Virus record (IMG/VR): IMGVR_UViG_3300016476_000174
Coordinates: 32,001 to 96,000 of that record
Strand: one strand, 5' to 3'
Origin: a virus
Length of the DNA: 64,000 nucleotides
The notes beneath the pieces are model-generated. The model was not told the DNA's origin. It saw nothing but the letters and a program-made list of their open reading frames with translations, and did no database searches. A program made the position numbers and the translations under genes. Positions 6,001 to 23,196 of this stretch are shown here, piece by piece (positions within the stretch are counted from its first letter, which is position 1; every line of letters starts with the position of its first letter).

Positions 6001-9000
6001 CTAGCTAAGTTGTACTTAGCAGTAAATGCAAAGAATCTATCAGTACCATTTTCTTCATTAGGTACAGTATCTTCTTCATCTAAGTATTGACGTCCAAATG
6101 TTTTATTAAAACCAACCTCTTCAAACTTAGGTTGTTTGTTAGTTTTACTAAATGTAGTAACAGTTTCATTATCTTCTAACTCCTCTGTTTCTTCTTGACC
6201 TTCTTCATCTACATCTTTCTTAACAGCTTTCTTACGAGGCTTTTTAGTCTCTTGTTTCTTAAAGCCTTCTTTATCTAATGTAGCAGCTAGCTCTTCAGCA
6301 TCAATAACAACTGGATCACCATCATTAAGTTTAATAGTTACACTACTATCTTCTTCATTGATGTCCATTACTTCAAGCTTAGTAACCTCAGCAGTTTCTG
6401 GATCTGTCGCAGTATATACATCTCCAGTATTAAACTCTATAGTATTTTCTACATCATCCTCTGTTTTGTAAGTTACAGACAGTTTCTTTGTAGCAATAGG
6501 TATAGGTTGGCTAACTGGTTTAGGTTTAGAAGCTTGTTCTTTAAGTTGACTATCTACTACAGATAACATCTCATCAGCCAAAGACTGTAAAAAGTTTTCT
6601 TTACCATTGATAGTATCTGCATACTTAGCCCATTCTAAGCCAATACTCTTAATATGATTCTGTAACTCACCCTTAAGTTTAATCTTCTTGTTTAAGTTAT
6701 CTGATATACCAGGTTGGTTACGATCTTCTTTTTCATACTTAAAGAAACCATTCTCATCTTTTTGAAGAGATGAAACAGTTGTCTCATTATCTTTTTGAAG
6801 CTTATCAAAGCTTTTCTTTAAACCATCAAGAACTTCTTGTGCTACAGTTTCTAGGTTTGTAACAAACCCTTTCTTCTGCATAGCAGCAATAACTTCTTCT
6901 TGAGATTTAATTCTATACTGATATTCATTAAGTTGATCTACAATACCATCTGACAAAGAACTGTTCTCTGTAGATAATAAATCATTCTTAACTTCAGTTA
7001 CTTCTGTTAACAGGTCATTAAGAATAGTCTTATAAGCAGCTTGTTCAGCAGCCATGTTAATCATCTTATTCTTACGAGCTACGTCATCCTGAGTATCATC
7101 AAACATGATATCAGAATTCATTAACTTGTTCTGTTTAATAATTGAAGCTGCTAGCCCTTTATATCTATTGATCTGTGTATCAATATCATCCCCTAAAACA
7201 AAACCTAATTTAGCTATTTGTTCTGGATCAGACTTTCTTACAGCATCTAGCTTTTGATCAATAGTTCCTTCTACACCTGCATTGATATGAGCTACAACAA
7301 ATTGTGCAAAAGCTGTATCTCTTAATGCGTCTTTCTTAAATTTATCATCTACTTTAGTAGACTCTTCTAAAGCAGAGTTTACTGCTCTGAATGAAGAAGT
7401 TACTGCAGCAATTCTTTTCTCATCTAATATAGGTTGATTGTTTTCATCATAAACAATCTTTTCTACTTTTGTAGGATTACCTTCTGCATCTGTAGAGTCA
7501 ACTACTTTAGTTTTATAAATATTACCAAACTTAAGCCAGTTTTCTTGAGCTGCATTATACATTTCAACTGCTGCTTGTGTAGCTGCTTGATCACGATTAA
7601 ATTGTCTTACACCACCAATACCTGCACCAATACCTCCTAAGATACCACCAATACCAATACTGATAGAAGCTTCGGTATCTTTACCCATTAAAGCATCTGC
7701 AGTTTGTTTAAAGTATTGTTTAAATACTTCACTTGTATTAGATAGATCAGCCATACGTCCACTAGTTCCGTATGCCTCATTAATCCTTTGAATAGCTAAC
7801 TGACCATTTTCTTCTAAGTATCCTTCTACACCAACACCTTCAGCAACACCCGTTAAGAATGCTCCTTTTTTAGAACTAAGGAAACGCTCTATTCCTGAAG
7901 TAGCTGTTCTTACTCCCATGCTTTCTCCAAGTTCAGCAGCACCTGTTACTGCACCAGCAATACCAGGAGTCTTACCAAAAGCTTGACCTAACCATTTAAG
8001 TTCAACAGCATTTGTAGCAGCTAGTAAAGCTGCATTCATTAAGAAAGTATTTTGAGAAGCAGCCCCTGCTATTCTAGCTTTTTCCTCATCTGAGTAAGGA
8101 GTACCATCTTCTTTATATCTTGTTCTACCAAACTCATCATAAGATAAAGAATCCATTACTTTATCTTTAACAGCTTTAGCTTCATACATGGACTCTGAAG
8201 CAGTTGCTAAAGCCCAAGCATTAAACTTATCTAACTTACTAAATGCATTAGCTGCACTCTTGGTATAGTTAACTGCAGCTCCAGCTCCTTCAATAGCAGC
8301 TTCAGCAGCACCAACACCAATACGCATACCAGATGCTAGTCTAGCTAAGTTAGCTCCTAGTTGCAGTTTACTTAAAGCAATACCAGGAACCCAAGCTGAT
8401 GCTAAGAAAGCTAAACCATCTACAGCATCAGTCATCCAAAAATCACCATCTGTAAATGCTCTTGACCAAAAACCTTTATCTCTATCTGCAGCTTCTTGAT
8501 ATGTAGGTAACCAATCGTTTTTAACTTTATCGTCTAAAGATCTAAAGATTTCAGAAAATCCATTATCAGATGCTTTACTAATAATATCTGCATCCCAATT
8601 ATCTGAATCTAATAGACCACCAATATAACCAATACCTTCACCAGTCTTACTAACAATACCTAATCCAAGTCTACCTAAACCTTTACCAAAAGTTTTAAAT
8701 GCACCTTCTTGCTCACCGTAAAAGTTATCATTGTCTATACCATAGATATAACCATAGTCAGTACCTTCGTACTTTCTAGCTTTTTCATAAGGTACAACTT
8801 TAGGATCTACCCATGATTCTTTAGCAAGAGGAAATGCTCTATCACCCTGTACAATAACAGCATTAAGAGCATCATCATAAGATTTATATTTACTTCTTGG
8901 TGGATCTTGTTGAGGAACCGCAAACTGCTGTTCAGGCTGATCCATAGGTACTTGTTCTACAGGAGCATTCTCAACTGGAACTTCTTCTGTACTAGGCAAA

Positions 9001-9062
9001 CCTTCTATAGTGTTTTCAGGTAATGTAGATAAGTAGTCTTGCTCAAAAGTATTTTCAGCCAT
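1..9062 (-). CDS. Giant virion-associated RNA polymerase polyprotein / ejection (cargo) protein, >3020 aa, runs off the window start
   Basis: ATG at 9062 (MAENTFEQDYLSTLPE). Absent from the ORF track, consistent with no in-frame stop before base 1. Manual translation at several points stays in one frame and gives crAss-type vRNAP-like motifs GHPALYKDLPKR, NLVEADAMAMGLPDVVR, LKPQYFG and VDVIGFESGEKVG, a zincin-like HEAFE segment, a NADAR-like segment and a Gly-rich hydrophobic N-terminal region. The catalytic DxDxD was not seen in the segments translated and is expected beyond the window. Confidence 0.85.
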   Translation of the reverse strand, partial: MAENTFEQDYLSTLPENTIEGLPSTEEVPVENAPVEQVPMDQPEQQFAVPQQDPPRSKYKSYDDALNAVIVQGDRAFPLAKESWVDPKVVPYEKARKYEGTDYGYIYGIDNDNFYGEQEGAFKTFGKGLGRLGLGIVSKTGEGIGYIGGLLDSDNWDADIISKASDNGFSEIFRSLDDKVKNDWLPTYQEAADRDKGFWSRAFTDGDFWMTDAVDGLAFLASAWVPGIALSKLQLGANLARLASGMRIGVGAAEAAIEGAGAAVNYTKSAANAFSKLDKFNAWALATASESMYEAKAVKDKVMDSLSYDEFGRTRYKEDGTPYSDEEKARIAGAASQNTFLMNAALLAATNAVELKWLGQAFGKTPGIAGAVTGAAELGESMGVRTATSGIERFLSSKKGAFLTGVAEGVGVEGYLEENGQLAIQRINEAYGTSGRMADLSNTSEVFKQYFKQTADALMGKDTEASISIGIGGILGGIGAGIGGVRQFNRDQAATQAAVEMYNAAQENWLKFGNIYKTKVVDSTDAEGNPTKVEKIVYDENNQPILDEKRIAAVTSSFRAVNSALEESTKVDDKFKKDALRDTAFAQFVVAHINAGVEGTIDQKLDAVRKSDPEQIAKLGFVLGDDIDTQINRYKGLAASIIKQNKLMNSDIMFDDTQDDVARKNKMINMAAEQAAYKTILNDLLTEVTEVKNDLLSTENSSLSDGIVDQLNEYQYRIKSQEEVIAAMQKKGFVTNLETVAQEVLDGLKKSFDKLQKDNETTVSSLQKDENGFFKYEKEDRNQPGISDNLNKKIKLKGELQNHIKSIGLEWAKYADTINGKENFLQSLADEMLSVVDSQLKEQASKPKPVSQPIPIATKKLSVTYKTEDDVENTIEFNTGDVYTATDPETAEVTKLEVMDINEEDSSVTIKLNDGDPVVIDAEELAATLDKEGFKKQETKKPRKKAVKKDVDEEGQEETEELEDNETVTTFSKTNKQPKFEEVGFNKTFGRQYLDEEDTVPNEENGTDRFFAFTAKYNLARRGYALKVITADNDTFDIRDTEYNANDIKVVVVKKQPQQDGSTKYAYVNVNNELIPEGEENKSNIIYRSLAGIDTWTVDRVKKEYTVDSETTDEEIQAAIDAEKAYQQSISDRIKAGEEVYLDVVTAMPGVQRIEYTSAVGEDGKRQLAKAEVEGRVITENPDFTDLRSVSNPDVNIGLRVSTGRGVVMAGVQPGRLVMQEYTMENGKKIYGDKVIRVFNRDLTDVEKDTVIKAFVRLSELYIQKYGYNAASGKKKKKPLSTADQAEMSIIEDYLKHVLNWSRPVKGKSSDKYFWVQSGLHRGNLVIPFTKEDILKNRDKLVKGVTHHVNNKALQDNDSFSTIKFVKGKAVLDKSFDTYEEYLLAKRDDGTTPPVYSSLPLYNSNTPQRTQVQIMWKDPSVVEPEVEQEEKVSKKKPIAKIKGSSELMDDKIDEFLDMSRNDIDINGVKVSFVVQAGGFAIKIQKGNFKPKMSKTFANQKEIQDSRSEILKNITQATGYVYGANRGLKQLAAQATQKAAEAKVTAQQPTAPVVQATKPVINVYWSGPENETNTKLLSNLAPRTFTWNGADYGSVEHAYQSNKSGTFDQATYDKYVAVGGYGTKIRGKAVKKGFDNLQLMRDLVVESFKQNPTDAQLLLKYSDFTHTTKEVIDEAFLEGLRLAQKNAQAGVTSDVTPSQEVTVQEGPFFSVEEAVANAVPENGKLYASVSQMNVKTQEVVKLAEATIAIPSGNINAAKALLTKALIAQLDTDSEEPPFRLDIGEMEATEDFAKLAKFMKEKLPMFPVKKMGHLIHGKGLGAFMRGAIHIYENAGLGTGFHEAFEAVWGTFLTQDEKLELAAEFKAREGSFYNKFTKDTKPYSQASLYDVREMLAEEFREYILLDNSIGNKIANFFKNLWKAIQGLFSMSPKDKTEMNSVIKDLFKKIGAGGFKNARFIKDSRLTGPAYKAVADLTQKDTSDILEGLNYYFFTELFKQGNNIDSILGKLDKKESNALLNNLWNTATEQVIGNLSVVSPKIKSIVEAYKDDFYREFKKNLDRYGVIFSEIEEDENNVTDTLGIRDAITIDPRSMTSTNVMLLIASLPQTSVVRGKTVLVKNDLNQPRLVNSDRVHTTLLNELSNVVSVIDKDGIRKNTLDLMFQKLDKKYKTADNNYRENYGWVRNLKLRLKYENNLGMKVPASTLNKEDVLLRVSFTKSFSNARFSPEKLIVSDEGYIYNTNPLININEERIRNEWANNLKVAVQNKQTNLVKIDSAGRMMINRKSDDYIELMDTAKNRSSYDLATALNALSVLGIEFNASLNDLAPFENSIREQTLQILDVMKSGEIEDVADLFGRTIVGGRINTLIAIESKFNSEDNILSYNNAEGQQQFSVGQPSLLSNMINILNTVSSQEELVQTAPWLGFIDEDGEVILHAYQTNSELLKKGGRLFDINGKRKNNSELTFHVISGLGITEVDGNNTAKLQFPERVANKIHFLLNNVVFSNINSDKSTEYGIGIPGKLMASRRDIQRMLTADDKGIVDMYMNHLYDEMYAATIQADSPVNIQYYRDAVFNLGHFRDIVGADLIAKFNKQVITDDMDFEEFIEENRELLEDKITTYINNKTEDTVAFLKDLDIFIKPDSFKSDLYITDAIDNDSLDEMLGIKDTQTLNYKAGGYDSELKSRSGYTEDNLRTIAAILSLNEELLLTEQHKLIYGHPALYKDLPKRANGATSTKEAFVEDSDIVAWMDDNMVRNDGKLRSEETHQTIKNISFKDMDVVSAFHKDIAQSTYAEMIASGIVKEQAEKKIGARFDEQGQITGFILNKKKEFTGMIKAYMNLVEADAMAMGLPDVVRDILFMSGKFTAQREAQWDYEIAYETLVRSGAMPNAKGETIKKGDPRYKKATKAEIEAAQETFDKGNPGYVFEMLKPQYFGYAKTDNITHPVFLKHALQPKFYRHVEGNQFEKLYIAAQKDKVDVIGFESGEKVGNVTTAEGTFLPIYNELGEVNVVTSNKGYELPTDL

Positions 9063-11528: not shown

Positions 11529-14500
11529 TTATTGACCCCATGGTCCAACCATACCACTTAAGGCTGCATTATACATAGCTGGCATACCTTGAGCCATAGT
11601 AGTTCTTACACTATTTGGTATTCCATCATAGTCAGTATCTGAGTAAGTCATTCTTCCACCAGATAGTTGAGCAATAGCTTGTTTTTCTGCATTAGCCTCA
11701 GTCATTCCTAAACGAAGATACTGATTTTTTAATGTAGGAAAATTAGACATAGCTCCAACTGATCCCATAGAACCTGCACCAAAACCTTGTGAACCAAGTT
11801 TGCTAGGATCATATCCTTCTTTAAAGAAAGATAAACCTGTTCTAGGATCAACATTATAAATAGGATTAACTTTGTTAACCATGTCTAAATACATTCTATT
11901 AGCAAATGCATTATTGGCTGCTTTAGTAATACCAGCTAAGTATTTTCTACGAGCATTTTCTAAGTTTTGCTTAGTTGTAACAAAACCTTCCCAACGTTTA
12001 TCTCTTGCTGCAGCATTGTAAGCATTATTAGCAGTTTTACGTTGTAACTCTTGAGCCATAAATTGATTAGCTCTATCTACGTTACGAGAGTCTGTTTGAG
12101 CAATATCTTGAGCTACACCTTCACCAGTTTGACCTGCTAAGAAAGAAAGGTTAGAAGCCATAGCTGTACCAGGCTGATATTGACCTAATGTATTAGCAGC
12201 TATGTTATATGTCTGCTGTCTTTGTTGTGCTTTAGATAACCAGTCCTCTAAGGCAAGATCTCCTTGTCTATAAGGTAAGTCTGCAACTGAAGGAAGATAA
12301 GCCTGTGGCGGTACCAATCCTGCAGTTAATAATGCTAATTTATCAGGAGTTAAGAATCCAGCTCTTTCAGGAGTCTTATTACCAGTGGTAATTTTATTAG
12401 GAGTTATTGATCCAGTACATTGCATAGCAGCAGCTTGTCTTGATCCTACAGCTCCATCAGCAGCCATAGCTTCTGCATCCATATAAGATGATTCAACAAT
12501 CATTGGATTACCAGCTTCATCAACTCCTGTACACTTATAACCAATAGGAGATCTAGCTGGAACCATTTTAGGTTTTGTACGATAACTATCAAAGTGCTCA
12601 GCACCAATCATCATGTCATCACCTAATTGTGTACGATAGTCTGAACCAACAAACTTTTCTGCAAATTTAGGATAGAACTGTTTTTCAAAGAAGTTCTTAT
12701 TAGAATAAAGACTCTTCTTATTTTTTAATTGTTCATCACTTAAGTTAGATACATCTACACCAAGTTCTTTAAAATATGCTTTACGAATATCTAATTCACT
12801 CATATTCTTTACAGCATCTTCACCTAATGTATCTTCTACAACTCTACGCTCATACATATCAGGACTGTATCCACCAAAGAATCCAGCTTTTTTACCTTTA
12901 CTACTTTTAAAAGTTAATCCTGGTGTAGAACTTTGAATAACATTATATACTCTATTACCTTTTGCGTCTTTTCTACTAAAACCAAACTTACCAGATAAAC
13001 GAGCAAACTCTTTTGCATCATCTGGAGACATGTTGCTAATATTATAAGAACCTTTTACTAACTTATTATCATACTTTTTTAGTAGCTGATCATACTTAGC
13101 AAATTCTGGATCATTAAGATCAGCTAATGTTTTAGGAGATATAGTTTGATCAATTATCTCATTAGCATCTGGAACACGTGTAGGTTTAGAAGCAGCTTGA
13201 CGTCTATCTAGGTCTTGTAATAAAGCTTGTTGTTGAACTAAGTTAGCAGCTTGAGGAAAAATTTGATATGGGTTTAAAGGATCAATAACTTGACCAGCTA
13301 ATTGATACTCAGGAATATAACCACCATATGCTGCAATAGGCATTTCATCTTGTACACCTTTTGCTACTGCAGGAAGACCTTGTGGAAATCCTTTCATCTG
13401 TTCTTGTATAGTAGCCAATGCTGATAGCTTCTTACGATAGTTTGTAAGCATCAGTTGAGCTGTATCTTTAGAAATAGGATCTGACTCTGGATCTTCTACA
13501 ATAGCTTTATACTTATTGATATCATATTTCTTAGCAAGTTCTGCAGGAGTATATCCACCTGCTTTAGGAGACTTACCAAACATTGTTAGTATAGCAGGAT
13601 CTTTAATCTTCATCTTTTTAGTATCTGAGAAAATAAAGCTACCTTCTGGAACATTAAGAGGTACACCACCTTGACTGTGACGCTTACCACTAATCTTCAT
13701 ATGTTCTAATCCACCATCACCATCTATATCACCATATATAGTTTCACCACCTTCTGCTTCTATATTAGCAGCATAACGTGGTACTTCTTGAATAGTACTT
13801 GATACAGAGTCAGCTTTACCGGCTGGCATTTCAGTTTGTACTCTACGTTGACCAAGATCTAAGCCATAGCCATTTTGACCACCATATTCAAACTCTAAGT
13901 TTTCTGGCTTACCAGTTATTCTAATCTTTATCATATTACTTGTATTAGCAAAATTCTCTTCTCCACCCATTTGAAACATGCCCTCATTAGGTTTACGTGT
14001 TACATTTTCACGGAATCTACCAGTATTAATATCAGCATTACCTCTAAACATAGGACTAACAGCTTGATTATCAAACTGGTTTTGCCTATAAGCTCTTTCA
14101 AAATCTTTAAGTTTTTGATTTTGACCAAAGTAATCCACAACAGCTCCTGTTGCTAAAAAAGCATCTGACCAATCAGATACATTATTAGCCATATCTACAG
14201 TGTTTTGATTAAATAAAGGTTTTCTTTTATTAGGATTAACAATAGCAGGACTATCTTTTATAGGAGTTCCTTTGCTATTATCTACAGCAAACTGCATAGT
14301 AGGTTCACCAAAATCACCCACTGTACTTCTAGATCCATCTGGATTAATAGTAGTTACTTTAGGTAAAGGTGGTAATGTGTTTTGTCCCATTACTCCAGAA
14401 AAGAATGAAGGAGTGTTATTAATAGGAGTTACAGTTTTTTGTTTACTACCATAATAAGACTGAATTTGAGCAATGTCATTATTCATAAGCTCTTCTTGTT

Positions 14501-14609
14501 GCTTTATAATAGCAGCATCAGCTGGATTATTTGGATCTAGCGTTCTTCCATTATAAGTATAACCTGTCTGAGCTTTAGGTAGTCCTTTTTTTATAATACG
14601 TATTTTCAT
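11529..14609 (-). CDS. Putative cargo/ejection protein (1026 aa) with xxxGG motifs
   Basis: Contains the segment IEAEGGE...GKRHSQGGVPL...FIFSD recalled from crAss-like cargo proteins, linker motifs FQMGG, FEYGG and AAYGG, and a Gln/Ala-rich helical C-terminus. Confidence 0.6.
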   Translation of the reverse strand: MKIRIIKKGLPKAQTGYTYNGRTLDPNNPADAAIIKQQEELMNNDIAQIQSYYGSKQKTVTPINNTPSFFSGVMGQNTLPPLPKVTTINPDGSRSTVGDFGEPTMQFAVDNSKGTPIKDSPAIVNPNKRKPLFNQNTVDMANNVSDWSDAFLATGAVVDYFGQNQKLKDFERAYRQNQFDNQAVSPMFRGNADINTGRFRENVTRKPNEGMFQMGGEENFANTSNMIKIRITGKPENLEFEYGGQNGYGLDLGQRRVQTEMPAGKADSVSSTIQEVPRYAANIEAEGGETIYGDIDGDGGLEHMKISGKRHSQGGVPLNVPEGSFIFSDTKKMKIKDPAILTMFGKSPKAGGYTPAELAKKYDINKYKAIVEDPESDPISKDTAQLMLTNYRKKLSALATIQEQMKGFPQGLPAVAKGVQDEMPIAAYGGYIPEYQLAGQVIDPLNPYQIFPQAANLVQQQALLQDLDRRQAASKPTRVPDANEIIDQTISPKTLADLNDPEFAKYDQLLKKYDNKLVKGSYNISNMSPDDAKEFARLSGKFGFSRKDAKGNRVYNVIQSSTPGLTFKSSKGKKAGFFGGYSPDMYERRVVEDTLGEDAVKNMSELDIRKAYFKELGVDVSNLSDEQLKNKKSLYSNKNFFEKQFYPKFAEKFVGSDYRTQLGDDMMIGAEHFDSYRTKPKMVPARSPIGYKCTGVDEAGNPMIVESSYMDAEAMAADGAVGSRQAAAMQCTGSITPNKITTGNKTPERAGFLTPDKLALLTAGLVPPQAYLPSVADLPYRQGDLALEDWLSKAQQRQQTYNIAANTLGQYQPGTAMASNLSFLAGQTGEGVAQDIAQTDSRNVDRANQFMAQELQRKTANNAYNAAARDKRWEGFVTTKQNLENARRKYLAGITKAANNAFANRMYLDMVNKVNPIYNVDPRTGLSFFKEGYDPSKLGSQGFGAGSMGSVGAMSNFPTLKNQYLRLGMTEANAEKQAIAQLSGGRMTYSDTDYDGIPNSVRTTMAQGMPAMYNAALSGMVGPWGQ

Positions 14610-14611
14610 AA

Positions 14612-15814
14612 TTACATTATTTCAAACTGATAACCTTGTTGACGAAGAAGTTCTAACTGCTCTGGAGATACATCTAATACTTCACCTTCTACTGGACCAC
14701 CTGCTTGCTTAGCAAAGTTCTTAGCAAAGTTAGCTTTTTTTCTCATAGCAGGACTATACTTTCCTTCTGGTGCATTAAGTATTGCAGAAGCAGCTTCTTG
14801 TACTCCCATACCCATACGAGTAGCTTGAGCTTTAAACGTTCCTTTCTTAGATGGATCTAAATGAATACCTCCTTGCTCCATCATCTCTACAGAATAATTA
14901 GCAGGAAATGACATATCATATTCTGGAATAAATCCACCACCTTGATAAAATGCATTACCACTATATGTAGAACCACCATCTTTCCATGTAGCTCTTGCAA
15001 AAGCTCTAAAGAAAGGATTAGCTTCTAAGTTCTTTTTATGTCTAGCATAGAATGCTTTCTTACGTTCAGGATCTTTAGGATGTTGTCCTAGTTTAGAATC
15101 ACCAAAGTATTTAACTGTACCATCTGGACCTGTTACTTTATGTGTTTTACCTTTACGATCATTACTTCTAGTTACAGTATAGCCACCATTAGCCATCTCC
15201 TGCATCTCATCTTCTTCTTCCATCTCTTCACCTTTTCCCTGAGCTTCTAGATTATACATCATATAATCAGCAATAGCATCAGCTGAATGATCCATTACAG
15301 CAAGCTTAGATGCAATCCACGGATCTAAATTTTGATCAGGAGAAACAAACTGACGTAACTTACTCATCTTATCTACAACGGCAGCCATTTGTCCTAATGC
15401 CATGCCACCATTAGGTTCACCACCTTCTTCCATAAATTGATTACCCCCATACATCATTTCCGGAATATATCCACCATAAGCATAACCATAGTCAGACATT
15501 TGATCAAGATTACCTGCAGCTGCAAAACGTGCACGTGCAATTTCTGGTGGCATCTTTTCTCCACCTTCTGCCATGTTATCCATAATCTTTTGCTGAACAG
15601 CAGGAGGTAAAGCATTAAAGCCTGGGTTATCTGGTGTACCACCATCTCCCATTACTTCCATACCATACTCAGCTTTACGCCAAGTACCACCTTTAGATTT
15701 ATACCACTTAGCAGCCCATCCATTTGCATAGGCACTAGGATAGACATCAAATTTTTGTTTAGCCATAGACTTAGCTCTAGACCACAAGGCAGGATTATTA
15801 GGTTTGTTTGCCAT
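14612..15814 (-). CDS. Multi-domain virion polyprotein (400 aa) of small basic domains separated by hydrophobic-x-x-GG motifs
   Basis: About 10 motifs (MGDGG, MAEGG, YAYGG, MMYGG, MEEGG, MANGG, WKDGG, YQGGG, MEQGG, KQAGG) delimiting compositionally distinct segments. Confidence 0.7.
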   Translation of the reverse strand: MANKPNNPALWSRAKSMAKQKFDVYPSAYANGWAAKWYKSKGGTWRKAEYGMEVMGDGGTPDNPGFNALPPAVQQKIMDNMAEGGEKMPPEIARARFAAAGNLDQMSDYGYAYGGYIPEMMYGGNQFMEEGGEPNGGMALGQMAAVVDKMSKLRQFVSPDQNLDPWIASKLAVMDHSADAIADYMMYNLEAQGKGEEMEEEDEMQEMANGGYTVTRSNDRKGKTHKVTGPDGTVKYFGDSKLGQHPKDPERKKAFYARHKKNLEANPFFRAFARATWKDGGSTYSGNAFYQGGGFIPEYDMSFPANYSVEMMEQGGIHLDPSKKGTFKAQATRMGMGVQEAASAILNAPEGKYSPAMRKKANFAKNFAKQAGGPVEGEVLDVSPEQLELLRQQGYQFEIM

Positions 15815-15825
15815 GATTAATATAC

Positions 15826-18225
15826 TTATTTTTTATGATTATATGGGATTCTTTGACTACTTGTCTTAGTCCTCTTAAATTTAGCCTTCTCAGCAGGACT
15901 CATTTCTGAAGAAGTTTTAGGTGTTTGACTAGATACTCTTTTAGAAGGACGACATGCTGGGTAAGCTCTATTCTCTCCTTCTTGTCTACCGCAAGCTTTT
16001 CCTGACTTTACATCAACCCACTTCTCTGCAAACCATCTATCTAATCCACCATGTTGTCCACCACTTGCATTCTTTGGTAACACACCAGTTCCTTGTTTAT
16101 AATTCTTACCAAACCAAGTAGCTTGCTGATCTGTTGGAAACTGAATATATGTTTTAGTACTATCTGCATAATCAAAAGGGTCAATACCTGCTGCTGGTAG
16201 ATATGTAAGTTTGCCTTTTACCATAGCTACTTTAGGATAAACTCTACCATCACCTGATTCCATATAGTGGGTGCTAGGTCCTTTTAGTCCAGGTATCTGA
16301 AGATTAGGACCATTCTTTTGGTATAATCTTTTTACCCAATCTAAATTACGATTAGCATTAAGTACACTATCTACATAAGCAGTACCACCACCTTGCATCA
16401 TAGGATACTCATCTACATAAGATGCTCCACCAAAATTATACTCTTGTCCTGGATACATCATCTGTTGTTGACCATTAGATCCTACACCGTACACTGGATA
16501 AGGAACTCCTTGCATAGTTATATTACTACTAGGTATACGAGTTACTTGACCAGGATAAGCCCACTGACCACGAGGATCTAATATAGGTCCACCTTGTTGA
16601 GCCATATTAATATTTGGCTGAGTATTCTCATTCTGTGCAATAGTATTATTTAAAAGAATAATCTTACCAGGACTATACTTCTGCTGCATTCTTTTAAAGG
16701 TAGGATCATTCTGGATGTTCTTATTCTTTAAAGCTTTTTCATATATAGTTCTATTGATGTTATCTCCAAACTTTTTAGTAAGACCATTCTTATACATCAA
16801 GTGTCTCATAGCTGTTAAATCAGCATAGGACTCATTAGCAAAATCTCCAAAACCTCTATTGTCATAATGCTCATCATTATTAGCTATGGGATAAGCAAAG
16901 TTTTTTAATTTCTCAACTTCTAGTTTATTTAAACTAGTACCAAAAGTATGTTTTTTATCAGAAGCTAAATTATCCCAATACTGACTATTATCATAGTCAG
17001 AATGTAAAGCTGTACTTAAACGATCACCTTTAAATAAAGAGTGACCTAGCTCATGTGCTACAACACTTTCTAAATTAGAACTATTTAATACAGTTTTTCT
17101 TTTAGTAGGATCGTAATAGTCTTTAAATGTTCCAATCTTTTTAATTTGAGCTGGTTGATTATATAAATCTATAAGTCTATATGTCTTTTTACCAGAAGCA
17201 ATAGATTCTTGAAACATCTTAGGATCTTCAAAGTAATTCATATTATTACCTAAATATGTTTCAGGATGCATAGCTTGTCTCTTTGCATACAAAGGTGATT
17301 GAATATATCCTGCTATCTCATCTCTAATAGTATTAACTGTACCTTGGTTAATAGGTTTAAAGTCATACTTTCCTTCCCAAAAAGGATTAGTTATTGTTTG
17401 ACCACCACCTTGCATTTTTTGACCACCACATTTATAACACGGTTGTCCACCATACTTTTGTTTAAGAGTTTCTAAAAAAGAATTAGTACCTCCATGTTGT
17501 TTCTTAGCTTTAGGATAATACACTCTACCATATATTTTATATGGAGATCCCTGCATTTGATTTTGTAACTTTTCAGGAAAATCATACTGATCAGAATAAG
17601 ATAAATAATCACCCTGTTTATCAGATCCTCTACTAACTACAAATTGACCTAGTGCTCTAGCACGACTAACCATTGGTCTTCCTATAAGTGGATTTTCATC
17701 GTTTGGCTCAAACTTAACCATTTGTTTGTCACCTTCCCAAAATGCATTAGGATTACCAGGAAACTTACTATCAACAAAATATTCATCAGTAGGTAGTATC
17801 TGACCTGGTTTAACTTTATCTTTAAAACTATTAAATATATCTTGCTCTAATTGATCATCTGCACTATAGTAATAACCATTAGGATCTGCATTAATAGTTG
17901 GTTTATACTTAGATGGTCTAAAGTATTTAGGTTTATCTTCAAGACCTAAATATAATTTAAATGCTTCTTCACTACGAACATCATCATATTCATCTCTATC
18001 ATTATTAAATGCAAATCTTATATAGTTTTTAAGATCAGTATAATCTGTAGGACGAACTGTTCTATATACTTTTTGTCTACGTTCTAATGTTTCTTTAGGA
18101 AATACTCTTGGGTCAACAGGAGCTTTAGCTGTTACTTGTCCAGCTCTTTGCATCTTCTGTAACCCAGGAAGTACTCTATCCTTTACATTAGCAGCACTAA
18201 TCATATATTGTAATAACTTATTCAT
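15826..18225 (-). CDS. Multi-domain virion polyprotein (799 aa) with a zincin-like HELGH domain and a C-terminal DUF5872-like domain
   Basis: Linkers KQHGG, QKYGG, YKCGG, MQGGG (twice), AQQGG, NASGG, GQHGG. HELGH with downstream ESYADL. C-terminal GLDRWFAEKWVDVK..CGR..YPACRPSKRVS..TPKT. Confidence 0.65.
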   Translation of the reverse strand: MNKLLQYMISAANVKDRVLPGLQKMQRAGQVTAKAPVDPRVFPKETLERRQKVYRTVRPTDYTDLKNYIRFAFNNDRDEYDDVRSEEAFKLYLGLEDKPKYFRPSKYKPTINADPNGYYYSADDQLEQDIFNSFKDKVKPGQILPTDEYFVDSKFPGNPNAFWEGDKQMVKFEPNDENPLIGRPMVSRARALGQFVVSRGSDKQGDYLSYSDQYDFPEKLQNQMQGSPYKIYGRVYYPKAKKQHGGTNSFLETLKQKYGGQPCYKCGGQKMQGGGQTITNPFWEGKYDFKPINQGTVNTIRDEIAGYIQSPLYAKRQAMHPETYLGNNMNYFEDPKMFQESIASGKKTYRLIDLYNQPAQIKKIGTFKDYYDPTKRKTVLNSSNLESVVAHELGHSLFKGDRLSTALHSDYDNSQYWDNLASDKKHTFGTSLNKLEVEKLKNFAYPIANNDEHYDNRGFGDFANESYADLTAMRHLMYKNGLTKKFGDNINRTIYEKALKNKNIQNDPTFKRMQQKYSPGKIILLNNTIAQNENTQPNINMAQQGGPILDPRGQWAYPGQVTRIPSSNITMQGVPYPVYGVGSNGQQQMMYPGQEYNFGGASYVDEYPMMQGGGTAYVDSVLNANRNLDWVKRLYQKNGPNLQIPGLKGPSTHYMESGDGRVYPKVAMVKGKLTYLPAAGIDPFDYADSTKTYIQFPTDQQATWFGKNYKQGTGVLPKNASGGQHGGLDRWFAEKWVDVKSGKACGRQEGENRAYPACRPSKRVSSQTPKTSSEMSPAEKAKFKRTKTSSQRIPYNHKK

Positions 18226-21200
18226 TATCTATGTGACTGTATAAACTTTTGATTAGATATCTTAAATAACATTTTTAAATCTCCACTCTTCAATTTTCTT
18301 AACCACACCTTATTTACATTATGTCTAAACTTCTTACGTTCTAAGGCTGCCTTGTTGTAATTAACATACTGAGGGTTAATCTCGTATTGGTAACCATTAG
18401 CTTTTGTAATAAACATAGACTGATTAACGGTAGTATTAAACTCGCCACGGTCTTTAGTAATATCCCAGAACTGATTAAATCTATACTTGTTCTCTTCTTT
18501 AGAGAATAAAATCTTAATAGAGTTAGGTTGGATCTGAGGATAAGATAAAGCTGCAACAGGATTGTTTTTAGGCTTTAAGTTTAACTCTAGTAATCCAGAT
18601 ACTTGTTCTGAGTTAGAAATAATAGCTTGATCAAAGTTTTGATCTAATACATGGAACTTATCTGCACAGTTATTATGTGTCTTGTATACTTCTAGTAAGT
18701 ATTCAATGTTTCTTACAGAGTTAACTTGCTGACCTGTAGCTGAGATAAACTCCACCTCAAATGGATAATCTTTACCATAGAAGTTTGCATAAGAATCACA
18801 ACGTACATTATGTTTCCATATAGAGTTTGTATCCACACTCATAAAATGAGCTTTACCTGGAATAGTAAATGTAGGATTCCAGTCATGGAATGATAACCAT
18901 GTTTGACTCTTAGGATCATAACTAATAGTCCATGAAGCATTTTCAAATGCTAAAGGATTATTAAAATCATAGTATGTCTTAACACCAGCAACTGTTCTAT
19001 AGAACTTACCGTCACCATCATGAGCCATATCAGCAAACAAAGGTTTATAGTCTTTCTTAGTGATATAGATTATCTCATTAGTATTATCATAAGTCATTTG
19101 TACCCCTACACCTTTTACAGGGTTATCATAATGAGGATAGTTAGGGTACTTAGCTAGTAATTCAGAAGGTAGATATTTAGCAAACCACCACTTCATTCCT
19201 TCTCTAGAAATCTCTTTAAGCTGTCCAGCATACTGGAATACTTTTCCTTGATTCTGAGAAACCCAGAATACGCCATGAGTACATCCTAAGTTAGCAAACT
19301 TATTTTGGCATGATCCATACTCAAATGACTCATCTGCATTTACTAAAGCTTGAAGTTGTTGAGGACCACTAAATAAAGCTCCATCACCAATTGTAATCTT
19401 AGCACCTGTACCATCAAGCTTGAGTTCTTCTACGCCCATGAACTGCATAGGACTTTGATAAGCCATCATGAACAAAGCACCAGTCTTATTTATAGACTTA
19501 ATAGCTGTTACACGACTATTAAAAGTCTTATAATTATTAGCTAAATAAACTCTCCAGTTATCTTTCTTACTCTCATCTTGTTGTGGTAGAGAATAAATAA
19601 CTCTGTTTGGATAGTAACTATAACATGTCTGTGCTTTTTTAGGATCAAAGTCTCTATCAAGCATATTACCCCAAGTGATCTGAGAATTAAATAATTTAGA
19701 CACACTTAGTGAATAGTCGTACTTATAATAGTTAGGTTCTTTAATTATATCTGATCTAAATAAACTTGATAAATCAGTTAATCCATTTACATCATAATGA
19801 CGTTTATCAGGACGATCTTCCCAGTCTCTGTATGCTACATTAACTTCTGATTCTACAAAGAAGTCACGTACACCTGAATTAAATAAATAAAAGTATCCTC
19901 TACTAACATGGAATGTACCAGATTTTCTATGATCTAGCACTCTAAACGAACTAGCTAATTTAAATAATCCACCAGATAAATCAGTATTGTTAACCCAGAA
20001 TCTAGGATAAGGCATACTAAAATACATAGTGTAATCTAGCTCTGCACCATTAGGCTCACCATATAACCATGTATTAAAGAACAACATACTGTTCTTTTCA
20101 GTGAATCTATTAATGTACACGTCACCACCAAAATAAACATTAGATGTAAACTTAGTAGCATTAGAGGTAGATATATCTTCTATACATGAAGAAATAGGTA
20201 ACTGCTTTAAACTATCTAGCTGTCCATATTGTGAAGGAAGAGAAATCTTTAAAGCACCATAGTGACCAGATATTGTACTTTGATATGTAGAATATAAAGA
20301 AGCATCTTTTTCACTAATTAAAAATCTACTATTATCAACTACTGTTGGATCTGATATTTCTGCGTTTGTTTTAAGTATAACAAACTTACCACGGTTAAAA
20401 TTATTAACTGTATAGTTTTGTGAGTTTGCAGTAAACGATTGAATGTCTGATCCTACATAACTAGACTCAATAATCTTTCTTCTTCTATTACCTTCTAATG
20501 TTGTTTTAGATTTATTATAGTATCCATGAGCAACATACTGAGCAGCATATTGATTATAAGGAATAATAGCTAATAATAACTTCATCAATTGCTCAGAAGT
20601 AATGTTTGTCTGTATAACAGCCATTGCTCCTAACACTACAGTATTAGCTATTGTAATAGCTGTATTAGCAGCTTGTCTTTTAGCAGCTCCAATTTGATCT
20701 GTTCCAGGTGCACCTGTACTACCTACATAACCACTTGATACACCAAGAAATGCACCAGCCATCATCTCAGCTCTATGGGGAGCTAATAAACTTTGAGTAA
20801 ATGGTAATTTCTCATCACCTTGAAGATCCATCCTAACATCTGCACCTGCTACTGCTCCAACTACTTTTGCAATAGTTGCTACTGCTCCTAATACATTAGT
20901 TAAGATATCAGAGAAGTTTGTAGGAATTTTAAACTTAGGATGTTTATATGGAGTTTCAAATCTACCATTAGACTCACCATAAATCTCTTGATAAAGTTTT
21001 ACTTCACTACTATTTAAATACGGTGTACTAAATGTTACATCAGGACCATGAAAAGATAGTACATCTTTCTTATAAGCGTTTAACTTAGAAGATTTAGGAT
21101 CTGGACCACCATTATCTCCTAACTGTTCTTGAGAAGTTAAGTAACTATCTTCTCTTAAATCATTAAACGGATAGTTCTGGTATAATCCTGTAACATTAGT

Positions 21201-22844
21201 TTGATTAGGAACAGAGTATTCTCTCATGTTATTAATCAAACCTTTACTTACAATAGTCTTATGTCCTTCTCTTGATCCACGTAATATTTCATAACCTACA
21301 ATAGATGTAATAACATTTCCATTAGCATCTACAGGCTTTGTAATATTTTGAAACTCTACACCTAGAATTACAATAGTATTTCCTTCATCTTTAAAGTGAT
21401 TTACAACATCACCACCAGTGATTGTAACATCTGGAAATTTATGATGTCTAATAGGCTGACCACATAAATTACCCCATATATCCACTCTATTAGAAGGATA
21501 TAGCTCTGTAGATTCCCAGTAGCCCATTTTACCTTTAGCTACAACACGACCACCATCTGCTAAAACAGAAGGGGTAGTTGTTTCTACTGTAGCAGTATTA
21601 CTTATCTGCCATCTTTCTAATTGAATACCATCTAATGCTTCATAGGCATCTGTTCCATTAGCTAAAGCTGTGTCAGTAGATACTGGTCCTCTACCTGGAA
21701 TATGATAAGACTCAGAACGTTCTCCTGTATTATACACCCATCTAATAAAGAATGCATATTGTTCATCTCTCATGTATCCAGTATTATTACCACCTTTTAC
21801 ATAATAGTTAGCAGGATATTCTACAGCAACCCATCTAGCTTGAATACTATTAGCTTGAGGCTGGTAGTTAAACTTAGTCTTACTATATGTACCTACACGT
21901 AACATGTAATTATTTACAGTATAGATAGCATCAGACTTTTCAATAGGTTCAGTTCTTACAACAATCTGAGAAATAGGAATTGTTTCAAAATCGTTACTTA
22001 GAGTATCTAGATAAATAGTACCTTGGTTAGTAGAATAATATCCAACCCTACGAGCAATAGTTTGCCCGTTTATCTGAGCTAGAATAACTAACTCAAATTC
22101 TTCAAAGTCTTCATCTACAGAACTAATCTTTACTTCTAAAGAACCAGATAAATTCTGATGACTAAATAATGATTGTACTTCTGATAAACCAAGGTAGTCT
22201 GTTACCTTAACTTTATTGATAGTATATGCAATAGCTATTTGGTATGATCCATTAGGAAGAGTACCACTAGCTTTACCTTTTTCTAAAACAATACATGGAT
22301 GCTTGATAAGAGATGCTAAACGGATCTCCTCACAATCAAGTTCTGTTGTATATACTTTAGTAACACATCCATTACTGATTGTTTCAGTATATTTAAATGG
22401 AGGATTTTCTAAGTCCATGAATCTGTCTGGATTTAATCCATCAGACCAATACACTGGACGTTCACAATCATAACGTCTACGACTAGTTCCTGTAATAAGG
22501 TTAGAGCGTTTAAAGTTTAAACACTTAGCATTTACTTTCTTTGTATAAGAACAAGCTGACTCATCAAATATACCAATCTCAGAGTCTACATCATCTGTTG
22601 TAAAGATAGCCCACATATCATCAGTAAGATGAATGCAGCCAATCATAGTGTAAGGAAGAGTTACACAATGTAGATTAGATGGTTCGTTACCAATAACACC
22701 AATCTGACCATCATGTGAGTTATTAACAGCATTACGGGCATGTGTCCACAATCCCTCACCAACGAAGGTTTCATTATAATCCTTAACCATACCTTTATTA
22801 AAAAGATTGGTAGTAGATGTAGGGTTCTGTGTATTTTCAGCCAT
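18225..22844 (-). CDS. Tail stabilisation / muzzle protein (P22 gp10-like, crAss Tstab), 1539 aa
   Basis: N-terminal FNKGMVKD, YWSDGLNPDRFMD, GYMRDEQYAF, GGDVYINRF and WTISYDP..WLSFHDW motifs. Beta-rich and located after the ring and IHF-like genes. Confidence 0.75.
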   Translation of the reverse strand: MAENTQNPTSTTNLFNKGMVKDYNETFVGEGLWTHARNAVNNSHDGQIGVIGNEPSNLHCVTLPYTMIGCIHLTDDMWAIFTTDDVDSEIGIFDESACSYTKKVNAKCLNFKRSNLITGTSRRRYDCERPVYWSDGLNPDRFMDLENPPFKYTETISNGCVTKVYTTELDCEEIRLASLIKHPCIVLEKGKASGTLPNGSYQIAIAYTINKVKVTDYLGLSEVQSLFSHQNLSGSLEVKISSVDEDFEEFELVILAQINGQTIARRVGYYSTNQGTIYLDTLSNDFETIPISQIVVRTEPIEKSDAIYTVNNYMLRVGTYSKTKFNYQPQANSIQARWVAVEYPANYYVKGGNNTGYMRDEQYAFFIRWVYNTGERSESYHIPGRGPVSTDTALANGTDAYEALDGIQLERWQISNTATVETTTPSVLADGGRVVAKGKMGYWESTELYPSNRVDIWGNLCGQPIRHHKFPDVTITGGDVVNHFKDEGNTIVILGVEFQNITKPVDANGNVITSIVGYEILRGSREGHKTIVSKGLINNMREYSVPNQTNVTGLYQNYPFNDLREDSYLTSQEQLGDNGGPDPKSSKLNAYKKDVLSFHGPDVTFSTPYLNSSEVKLYQEIYGESNGRFETPYKHPKFKIPTNFSDILTNVLGAVATIAKVVGAVAGADVRMDLQGDEKLPFTQSLLAPHRAEMMAGAFLGVSSGYVGSTGAPGTDQIGAAKRQAANTAITIANTVVLGAMAVIQTNITSEQLMKLLLAIIPYNQYAAQYVAHGYYNKSKTTLEGNRRRKIIESSYVGSDIQSFTANSQNYTVNNFNRGKFVILKTNAEISDPTVVDNSRFLISEKDASLYSTYQSTISGHYGALKISLPSQYGQLDSLKQLPISSCIEDISTSNATKFTSNVYFGGDVYINRFTEKNSMLFFNTWLYGEPNGAELDYTMYFSMPYPRFWVNNTDLSGGLFKLASSFRVLDHRKSGTFHVSRGYFYLFNSGVRDFFVESEVNVAYRDWEDRPDKRHYDVNGLTDLSSLFRSDIIKEPNYYKYDYSLSVSKLFNSQITWGNMLDRDFDPKKAQTCYSYYPNRVIYSLPQQDESKKDNWRVYLANNYKTFNSRVTAIKSINKTGALFMMAYQSPMQFMGVEELKLDGTGAKITIGDGALFSGPQQLQALVNADESFEYGSCQNKFANLGCTHGVFWVSQNQGKVFQYAGQLKEISREGMKWWFAKYLPSELLAKYPNYPHYDNPVKGVGVQMTYDNTNEIIYITKKDYKPLFADMAHDGDGKFYRTVAGVKTYYDFNNPLAFENASWTISYDPKSQTWLSFHDWNPTFTIPGKAHFMSVDTNSIWKHNVRCDSYANFYGKDYPFEVEFISATGQQVNSVRNIEYLLEVYKTHNNCADKFHVLDQNFDQAIISNSEQVSGLLELNLKPKNNPVAALSYPQIQPNSIKILFSKEENKYRFNQFWDITKDRGEFNTTVNQSMFITKANGYQYEINPQYVNYNKAALERKKFRHNVNKVWLRKLKSGDLKMLFKISNQKFIQSHR

Positions 22845-23196
22845 GTTTAATTACTAACTTCTTCTTGTCCAAAAATTTATATATTTCTCCAGAAAGATGA
22901 CCAACCAACCAAGCTTGTGCCTCTTCATCTGTAATATCTCTATCTTCTGTTATTCTCACTACAGCATGATAAAGTTCATGGGCAATGGTATTATGAGTTA
23001 AGTACTGACTACCTAGTAATAAATAATAATTATCTATATCTGGCATTACTAATGCTCCTTCAGCCTCTCCTCCAAAATCATCTTTAATCTTATACTTCTT
23101 GTAAAGTTTTTCTGCTGCTGCAGATACACTTTCCACCACTACTACTATGAGTTTACAACTATAAGTTGGTAGTTTTATGGTGGTACTTAATTTCAT
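22837..23196 (-). CDS. Small HExxH zinc-metallopeptidase-like protein (119 aa)
   Basis: IAHELYHAV followed by DEEAQAWLVG, a zincin motif with a downstream Glu ligand. Tightly packed between its neighbours. Confidence 0.6.
   Translation of the reverse strand: MKLSTTIKLPTYSCKLIVVVVESVSAAAEKLYKKYKIKDDFGGEAEGALVMPDIDNYYLLLGSQYLTHNTIAHELYHAVVRITEDRDITDEEAQAWLVGHLSGEIYKFLDKKKLVIKHG

Follow-up and report, generated by a model that had tools for sequence, protein, structure and literature searches.

What holds together the many small parts of the proteins that a crAss-like phage probably packs into its particle, and are the joints between these parts cut? The question was raised by three adjacent genes in a 64,000-nucleotide stretch of viral DNA, called here the window, which covers positions 32001-96000 of the 124,114-bp single-contig phage genome in IMG/VR record IMGVR_UViG_3300016476_000174. 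The structural genes all lie on the minus strand, and the coordinates below refer to the window and to that strand. Behind the gene of a muzzle-like protein, the open reading frames (ORFs) of three cargo-type proteins follow one another, with 799 amino acids (aa) (15826..18225, the first ORF after the muzzle-like gene), 400 aa (14612..15814) and 1026 aa (11529..14609). Their products share a five-residue peptide ending in Gly-Gly (GG), which we call the seam. On the best reading of the sequences, the locus would encode the internal cargo proteins of a crAss-like podovirus, which would be polyvalent-type chains of small modules that fold independently and are closed by conserved seams.

Crassviruses are among the most abundant phages known, and no part of their particle is understood less well than the cargo proteins. 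One junction rule holding over thousands of cargo proteins would parse them into units and explain their free shuffling. It also frames the question of what happens to the chains at the seams, where they may be cut, held fast or simply able to bend. This question matters for the storage of proteins in head and tail and for their passage through the tail ahead of the DNA. Some modules also stand alone as small genes of cyanophages and roseophages, so that the rule may be of use in annotating many orphan phage genes.

Enrichment of the seam motif

The initial annotation had described these genes as coding for cargo polyproteins, in which unrelated small domains are joined by a hydrophobic-x-x-Gly-Gly motif. 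All 21 GG motifs that it listed were found in their places. Some further GG five-mers had not been listed: the 400-aa protein also has KSKGG and EPNGG, the 799-aa protein YNFGG and the 1026-aa protein several non-canonical ones. The seam was defined as a bulky residue (Met, Tyr, Phe, His or Trp) followed by x-x-Gly-Gly, and was counted as [MFYWH]xxGG. The three proteins contained 18 such motifs in 2225 aa versus 33 in 36850 aa of the rest of the proteome (odds ratio 9.1, p=1.7e-10), the comparison being made over the 129 ORF products of the whole 124-kb genome.

Residue shuffles (20000 per protein) were used as a second comparison. The 400-aa protein had 13 GGs versus a shuffled mean of 5.2 (p=0.0006) and 10 [MFYWH]xxGG motifs versus 0.97 (p=5e-5). 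The 799-aa protein had 11 GGs versus 5.5 (p=0.017) and five motifs versus 0.89 (p=0.002). The 1026-aa protein alone was not significant in these shuffles, with nine GGs versus 7.8 (p=0.38) and three motifs versus 0.98 (p=0.07). No enrichment was found in the shuffle controls, which were the 1539-aa muzzle-like protein, a 793-aa protein further along the locus and the first 3020 aa of the giant protein behind it.

The seam pattern was thus confirmed for two proteins and was marginal for the third. The claim of a cargo-polyprotein motif stood for the 799-aa and 400-aa proteins; for the 1026-aa protein it was weak, as this had three canonical seams and its other GGs fell within a conserved block.

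Mere glycine richness, or a signal at the DNA level such as a conserved recombination word, is a very improbable source of the seams. It would fit the lack of enrichment in the 1026-aa protein alone and the many GGs in other Gly-rich proteins of the window, the tail fibres. The GGs of the tail fibres, however, occurred at the expected rate and lacked a preference at the third position before the first Gly (position -3), and the shuffles rejected chance for the 400-aa and 799-aa proteins. Gly codons at the seams were used as elsewhere (GGT 63% versus 56%), with GGTGGT and GGTGGA mixed. There is therefore no fixed DNA word at the seams, and such a word was rejected. Together with the proteome comparison and the -3 pattern of the relatives described below, the shuffles and codon use largely refuted this explanation. 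A chance origin of the seams was excluded.

Conservation of seams and exchange of modules in related loci

Related loci were collected from IMG/VR with the muzzle-like protein as anchor. The search found 424 stretches; 77 loci were retained, with no more than 10 kb downstream of each. In most of these 77 loci the genes behind the muzzle gene were GG-rich, the typical product being a protein of about 450 aa with 13-21 GGs versus 5-8 expected. The 255 non-identical downstream proteins contained 2507 GGs in 208950 aa, which is 1.20 per 100 aa versus 0.74 expected from Gly content.

Position -3 (n=2195 sites) was enriched over background in Met (5.5-fold), His (4.0-fold), Tyr (2.6-fold), Phe (2.2-fold) and Trp (1.9-fold), and together these five residues occupied it in 962 of the 2195 GG sites. 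Position -2 favoured Gln, Ala and Lys, and position -1 favoured Tyr, His and Cys, the Cys coming from CxxCGG knuckles. No such -3 pattern was seen in 697 upstream proteins (1417 GG sites).

The first gene after the muzzle gene ranged from 293 to 2383 aa across the related loci, so that the same material is divided into genes differently. The N-termini of separate genes mapped -2 to +10 after a GG of longer relatives at 51% of 146 sites, compared with a background of 19%. In relatives that are fused at the start of a 400-aa-type protein, the seam Gly-Gly lay exactly at that point in seven of eight cases, and the eighth has an in-frame Met a few residues past a seam.

A 40-sequence alignment (A1) of the 400-aa family showed whole blocks present or absent between invariant or nearly invariant glycines (G131/132, G210/211, G280/281, G293/294, G315 and G372/373). 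All-against-all BLASTP of 259 downstream proteins gave 7658 unique block ends. The homology blocks stopped exactly on the last Gly at 7.1% of unique ends versus 1.3% by chance, a signal that is partly trivial because the motif itself aligns. Within five residues of a seam lay 30% of block ends and 29% of block starts, compared with 13.7% by chance.

The AlphaFold2 model of the 799-aa protein (mean predicted local distance difference test score, pLDDT, of 67) contained confident domains at residues 37-240, 277-529 and 559-609. Eight of its nine GG runs fell within four low-confidence linkers (241-276, 530-558, 610-664 and 699-736), and YNFGG (596-600) was the sole run within a confident domain. 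The 400-aa model was poor (mean pLDDT 49, with 223 of 400 residues below 50). Segments of pLDDT <50 contained 11 of its 12 GG runs and adjoined the remaining one, a test with little power because 56% of the protein has such values.

The alignment, the homology-block ends, the gene splits and fusions and the predicted linkers all agreed with the proposal of the initial annotation that unrelated small modules have the motif at their boundaries. Seams are conserved and lie in linkers. They mark where relatives have modules inserted, deleted or swapped and where their genes have been split or fused. In the literature searched, which did not extend to subscription papers and bioRxiv supplements, no account of this motif was found.

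Similar genes were noted in other phages. The gp040 protein of Cellulophaga phage phi4:1 (L082 6357-9044) had 14 GGs versus 7.2 expected, with Phe-Gln-x-Gly-Gly seams. According to the mass-spectrometric (MS/MS) note in its record, it is a virion protein; the record does not put this phage in Crassvirales. The adjoining gp041 has two HExxH motifs. In Synechococcus phage S-BM3, SBM3_00185 (L085 1021-2034) is a neighbour of the small terminase gene. Its product, a basic protein of 337 aa, has nine GGs versus 4.1 expected. It contains the same DUF5872 parts as the proteins of the window, in C-then-N order, and its seams have Lys at -3, not Met, Tyr or Phe. As read in phi4:1 gp040 and, with Lys at -3, in the cyanomyovirus gene, the seam also occurs beyond crAss-like phages. 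The rule may be a wider trait of Bacteroidota phages.

Comparison with crAss001 gp45

The C1 cargo protein (gp45) of Bacteroides phage crAss001 resembles the products of this locus in that its gene is directly behind the muzzle gene and it is a virion-internal protein (Bayfield et al. 2023, PMC10172136). The presence of gp45 and gp46 in the virion is established (PMC10172136). In our counts gp45 had 21 GGs versus 13.3 expected, and gp46, gp47, gp49 and gp50 were not enriched. The two gp45 segments resolved by electron cryo-microscopy are residues 214-245 in the tail barrel and 425-552 on the portal (PMC10172136). They are bounded by seams such as SAYGG, FAEGGG and FAYGG, the first segment lying between GG 210 and GG 263 and the second between GG 428 and GG 563. 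The authors read gp45 as chains with parts in both tail and capsid (PMC10172136).

The published gp45 model runs unbroken through GG 428, 435 and 448, all three of which have Asn at -3 and are non-canonical. The canonical seams SAYGG (206-210) and FAYGG (559-563) lie in stretches that the map does not resolve, and the helix bound in the tail barrel begins four residues past SAYGG. In the accessible text of PMC10172136, 'cleav', 'protease' and 'proteoly' have 0 occurrences and seams are not mentioned.

The two systems have one module in common, residues 317-373 of the 400-aa protein, which matched gp45 residues 375-419 with a BLASTP E of 0.019. Unlike gp45, the chains of the window extend over three genes, have far denser seams and are made of different modules. 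The family crAss_CARG1 (PF25725; 133 positions, cut-off 27 bits) gave 0 matches at E<=1 in a six-frame search of the 124-kb genome, and none of the three proteins matched it when scanned with Pfam at E<=0.1.

The seam as a possible uncut joint

How does the seam work? We lean to an uncut, specifically shaped joint that combines a structure stop with a hinge, a reading to which we give slightly less than an even chance. The chains would remain uncut within the particle. The bulky residue of each seam would pack back onto the module that it closes, often as the last helix turn, and the Gly-Gly would halt secondary structure and provide a free hinge. With such a stop and hinge, the beads could be stored compactly and passed on one by one, unfolding and traversing the portal and tail channel singly. 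A similar passage through the channel has been proposed for crAss001 gp45 (PMC10172136). Seam-to-seam recombinants would stay viable chains, and this would account for the rampant shuffling.

In favour of the joint are the conservation of the seams, their place in linkers and at exchange points, the predicted helices that end just before some GG runs, the gp45 model that continues through three GGs, the lack of any seam enzyme among the products scanned and the tail described below as an alternative address.

Several points weigh against this joint. In a passive hinge the bulky residue need not be fixed, and nothing calls for Gln, Ala or Lys at -2 or for Tyr, Cys or His at -1; such sequence specificity looks like partner recognition. 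A predicted helix ended 1-2 residues before only seven of 21 GG runs in the 799-aa and 400-aa models, the latter of low confidence. At residues 111-137 of the 400-aa protein, seams stand 5-9 residues apart, with no module to cap. In gp45, the GGs that are unbroken in the model are the Asn-containing ones and not canonical seams, and the latter are in the parts missing from the map.

The specificity of the seam also fits a docking handle. The seam, or a longer form with aromatic-Ile-Pro-Glu after the Gly-Gly, would be bound repeatedly by a virion part (the portal, the ring proteins and the capsid interior are envisaged) or by a host factor, and avidity would serve loading or holding. The longer form recurs in the 400-aa protein (residues 111-120 and 289-299) and in the 1026-aa protein (residues 426-436), and the closeness of the gp45 barrel-bound helix to SAYGG points in the same direction. 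The handle is, however, putative and has no known partner, and the resolved contacts of gp45 are made by modules, not by seams. We consider it improbable.

A better candidate for an address is the C-terminal tail module of the 400-aa protein (residues 374-400; 14615..14695), which gave a weak DUF7210 match (PF23843, E=0.064). The tail spans about 27 residues, and its pattern ends with Gly-Gly (Gln-Gly in the copy of the window), a few residues and then hydrophobic-Glu-hydrophobic-hydrophobic. It was seen in L005, L006, L010, L055 and other related loci. Of the 259 downstream proteins, 55 end with the pattern, which was met in this position in the window and in 42 of 69 related loci; internal copies number only four in 211968 aa. 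Because it is so nearly confined to the terminus, the tail would be likelier than the seams to be the loading address, and it may be one.

Possible cleavage at seams and the search for a protease

The seams may instead be a cleavage code, as the initial annotation had suggested. They would then be cut by a Gly-Gly-directed protease, either an unrecognized phage-encoded one, one within the chain or one of the host, in the maturing head or after ejection. We regard this as less likely than the uncut joint but as a serious alternative, and several observations favour it. A specific five-residue Gly-Gly pattern is conserved over unrelated modules in thousands of proteins. Gene boundaries and seams are interchangeable, and the Met-Ala start of the 400-aa type aligns with the seam Gly-Gly in fused relatives. 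The closely spaced seams resemble spacer peptides, and the canonical seams of gp45 are those that the map does not resolve. The genome also encodes a gluzincin-like domain and a small HExxH protein, both described below.

Cleavage has also been proposed for related proteins. Drobysheva et al. (10.1101/2020.03.07.982082) thought that the fused virion proteins of crAss-like phages are likely cleaved and named a zincin-like domain, and Iyer et al. 2017 (PMC5512222) proposed that zincin-like peptidases process polyvalent proteins. The accessible parts of the two papers give no junction motif. If cleavage were true, the proteins loaded by crAss-like and some other Bacteroidota phages would be polyproteins, from which small basic peptides and enzymes would be set free by the dozen into the head or the host. 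The part of gp45 bound in the tail and the part on the portal would then be two fragments and not a single chain that runs through the portal. The system would be a phage counterpart of adenovirus and African swine fever virus (ASFV) core maturation.

The core polyproteins of adenovirus and ASFV are matured at Gly-Gly sites by the clan CE cysteine proteases adenain and pS273R, the adenovirus consensus being (M/I/L)xGG. Seam and cleavage site are alike in having a bulky hydrophobic residue shortly before Gly-Gly and in recurring many times within proteins packed with the genome. The register is different: the bulky residue of the seam is three places before the first Gly, that of the adenovirus site two. 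Among the relatives the bulky residues were enriched at -3 and position -2 was mainly Gln, Ala or Lys, which does not agree with the (M/I/L)-x-G-G consensus. In T4 and phiKZ-like phages a prohead protease processes internal head proteins at sites ending in Glu. These are likewise internal, injected proteins with a repeated short site, but the site does not end in Gly-Gly, and those phages have a known prohead protease gene, of which none was seen here.

A Pfam scan found no peptidase family in 119 of the 129 ORF products (114 scanned at E<=0.001 and five at E<=0.1), many of the ORFs being without any family; the scan did not extend to ten ORFs of the tail-fibre region or to the C-terminal 1217 aa of the giant ORF product. 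No clan CE, clan CA or prohead protease was recognized in the 119 products, and unlike in adenovirus and ASFV, cutting here is putative. The initial annotation had recognized no conventional prohead protease in the window, in agreement with the Pfam and PHROG scans. The crAss001 model, continuous through three GG sites, also speaks against cleavage. So do the crAss001 virion bands of up to 270 and >300 kDa (PMC6235969), which bear only on the giant proteins that are not GG-rich.

The whole genome contained two HExxH motifs only, one in the 799-aa protein and one in a 119-aa protein. The former belongs to a gluzincin-like metallopeptidase domain (residues 277-529; 16639..17397; pLDDT 80-97), with HELGH at 391-395 and downstream E465 and D469. 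Among 24 relatives the HExxH was at least 90% conserved, and the Glu and Asp four residues apart were invariant; 124 relatives were found at E<=1e-3. Its best structural neighbours by VIA-align were all zinc peptidases. These were neprilysin (Z 8.5, root-mean-square deviation 4.6, 184 aligned; a Z of about 8.5 is near the level that the VIA tool calls common), PepO (7.5), M34 peptidases (6.3) and thermolysin (5.2).

No Pfam family was assigned to this domain, with M48 touched weakly by one of the 24 relatives and M78 by another one of the 24. A PDB profile search returned fragilysin alone (E=0.98), and the 799-aa model had no Foldseek match in the PDB at E<=0.001. The initial annotation had named zincin-like domains as the visible protease candidates. 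The ExxxD pattern after the HExxH and the neprilysin likeness bear out a real gluzincin-like domain. The domain was, however, present in only nine of 69 related loci, whereas seams are general there. As a shuffled module it cannot be the general seam enzyme, and this candidate was rejected in that role.

The second HExxH motif lies in the 119-aa protein encoded between the ring-1 and muzzle-like genes (22837..23196), a possible small metallopeptidase not tied to seams. In crAss001 the ring-1 gene directly precedes the muzzle gene. The protein has a conserved His-Glu-x-x-His and an acidic stretch downstream. It matched no Pfam family (E<=0.001) and no PDB sequence (E<=10), its only match being phrog_1365, whose function is not annotated. 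In the ESM Atlas it fell into virus-only clusters without a family, with a weak lead to Peptidase_M78 at 0.89.

Of 71 loci, 43 have a small HExxH ORF conserved in this position; the 44th hit was a chance HExxH in a 365-aa ORF. The protein was absent from its usual place in 27 of the 71 loci. Four of the five fuller records among these gave no match and the fifth a weak one (E=0.0017); one fuller record without a match is 100% complete and has strongly seam-rich cargo. Median seam density was 5.3 per 1000 aa in loci with the small HExxH gene versus 4.0 (p=0.0014), an association that would favour cleavage but is modest and confounded by kinship. On these grounds the 119-aa protein was rejected as the seam enzyme.

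Modules of the 799-aa and 400-aa proteins

The module set that the seams delimit comprises the gluzincin-like peptidase, a small beta domain, the DUF5872 halves, basic mini-domains, Q-rich helices and the strictly C-terminal tail. The 799-aa protein opens with a folded domain (residues 37-240; 17506..18117; pLDDT about 70-94) that had no Pfam or PHROG match. A linker (residues 241-276; 17398..17505; pLDDT <50) with the seams KQHGG, QKYGG, YKCGG (a CxxCGG knuckle) and KMQGGG leads to the gluzincin-like domain. A second linker (residues 530-558; 16552..16638; pLDDT <50) has the seam AQQGG. It is followed by a small all-beta domain (residues 559-609; 16399..16551; pLDDT 75-88) with strands at 562-608, which holds YNFGG. 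The next module (residues 610-699; 16129..16398) opens with the seam MMQGGG, has low model confidence and occupies other positions in relatives, for example in L055.

The protein closes with a DUF5872 C-part (residues 700-788; 15862..16128), entered through the seams NASGG and GQHGG. It matched positions 24-110 of the PF19197 profile with E=2.3e-13 and 51.2 bits, compared with a cut-off of 27.5, and by tblastn it matched small cyanophage and roseophage genes.

The 400-aa protein is the densest in seams, with 12 GG runs. It opens with a DUF5872 N-half (residues 5-50; 15665..15802), closed by KSKGG, which matched PF19197 positions 1-45 with 19.4 bits, below the cut-off, and was 89% identical to cyanophage genes. 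The C-part thus precedes the N-part, the reverse of the Pfam order. In phage C72C1 (L084 446-852) the two parts are separate adjacent genes, the N-half being a 57-aa gene. In L055 and similar relatives they are in one chain, in the order C-part, seams, N-part. The Pfam family is therefore a pair of modules.

A seam-dense stretch follows (residues 55-137; 15404..15652), with MGDGG, MAEGG, YAYGG, MMYGG, MEEGG and EPNGG. The units between its seams are 5-26 aa long and were gained or lost whole at seams in the 40-sequence alignment. The helical acidic module behind it (residues 138-211; 15182..15403), with helices at 136-154, 165-193 and 200-208, is closed by MANGG and was the most conserved block of that alignment. 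A basic beta/alpha module (residues 212-281; 14972..15181; pLDDT 62-76), closed by WKDGG, is replaced between the same seams by a DUF5754-type module (PF19058) in some relatives.

Two short units (residues 282-316; 14867..14971; pLDDT <50) are closed by FYQGGG and MEQGG. The last module before the tail (residues 317-373; 14696..14866), closed by KQAGG, is common to the C1 (gp45)-type cargo proteins of gut crAss-like phages. By tblastn it was 75% identical over 44 aa to a gene of Dulem virus 41 (E=1e-11), which is, by its sequence, probably gp45-like. When the 400-aa protein was compared with 5.8 billion clustered proteins, at least 5147 matches at E<=1e-5 were obtained from 8000 candidates scored.

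The multi-domain chains resemble the polyvalent proteins of Iyer, Burroughs, Anand, de Souza and Aravind 2017 (PMC5512222), in which many unrelated domains are found in one delivered polypeptide, with extensive mosaicism and a zincin-like metallopeptidase. Such proteins have 2-15 unrelated domains; the 799-aa protein has three confident AlphaFold2 domains and further modules. Its zincin-like domain has the conserved HExxH, the downstream Glu and Asp and the zinc metallopeptidase neighbours described above. Precomputed Pfam labels of relatives included SLT and SET for the 799-aa protein and DUF5754, DUF3597 and YkuD for some relatives of the 400-aa protein, and SLT, YkuD and SET domains add to the likeness. 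The modules here differ in being mostly tiny (5-100 aa) and without assigned function. The paper describes no junction peptide, and its main text, as far as accessible, uses neither 'linker' nor 'glycine'.

The 1026-aa protein

The 1026-aa protein has three canonical seams only, FQMGG (212-216), FEYGG (240-244) and AAYGG (426-430). The conserved core of its family (residues 245-430; 13320..13877) lies between FEYGG and AAYGG. In an alignment of 25 sequences (A4), G243 was invariant, G429 and G430 were at least 90% conserved and many internal columns were invariant. The GGs at 288, 300, 315 and 352 belong to this core block.

BLASTP against crAss001 gp45 gave E=1.1. The profile of the 25-sequence family aligned residues 324-406 with gp45 480-543 in hhalign (E=0.19, probability 0.3), and it had no PDB match at E<=1. 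Homology of the 1026-aa protein to gp45 was thus not established by the BLASTP, hhalign, PDB or PF25725 searches. A tblastn search with this protein gave no match.

Genomic context

The gene order after the muzzle-like gene is 799-aa, 400-aa, 1026-aa, 793-aa and then a giant 4237-aa ORF, of which the window has the first 3020 aa. The muzzle-like virion protein (1539 aa; 18225..22844) matched phrog_37948 (2.6e-67) and phrog_15100 (2.7e-46). Upstream of the cargo locus, Pfam matched Crass_capsid, CrAss_Ring_1 and CrAss_Ring_2, and PHROGs matched portal, major head protein and tail fibres in the genome. At the nucleotide level, megablast found nothing similar to the locus in 50,697 phage records. 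The position of the three genes in a crassvirus structural block, with the muzzle gene before them and the giant genes behind, is that of Crassvirales cargo genes, and their products are probably such cargo.

In crAss001 the equivalent place is occupied by the gp45 and gp46 cargo genes and the polymerase-associated genes (PMC10172136). The gene context given by the initial annotation was borne out, with muzzle-like PHROGs on one side and, on the other, giant genes where the RNA polymerase genes would be expected. From this position the giant ORFs are putative polymerase genes.

The 4237-aa ORF spans 3-9062 of the window and continues to genome 28349-41062, and a second giant ORF of 1648 aa lies at genome 23400-28346. 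No Pfam family was found in the first 3020 aa of the former or in the whole 1648 aa of the latter, and their PHROG match was faint. Neither was enriched in GG. Inside the tail/ring block, a 438-aa protein (25420-26736) matched phrog_704, which is annotated as DNA repair exonuclease, with 8.8e-49.

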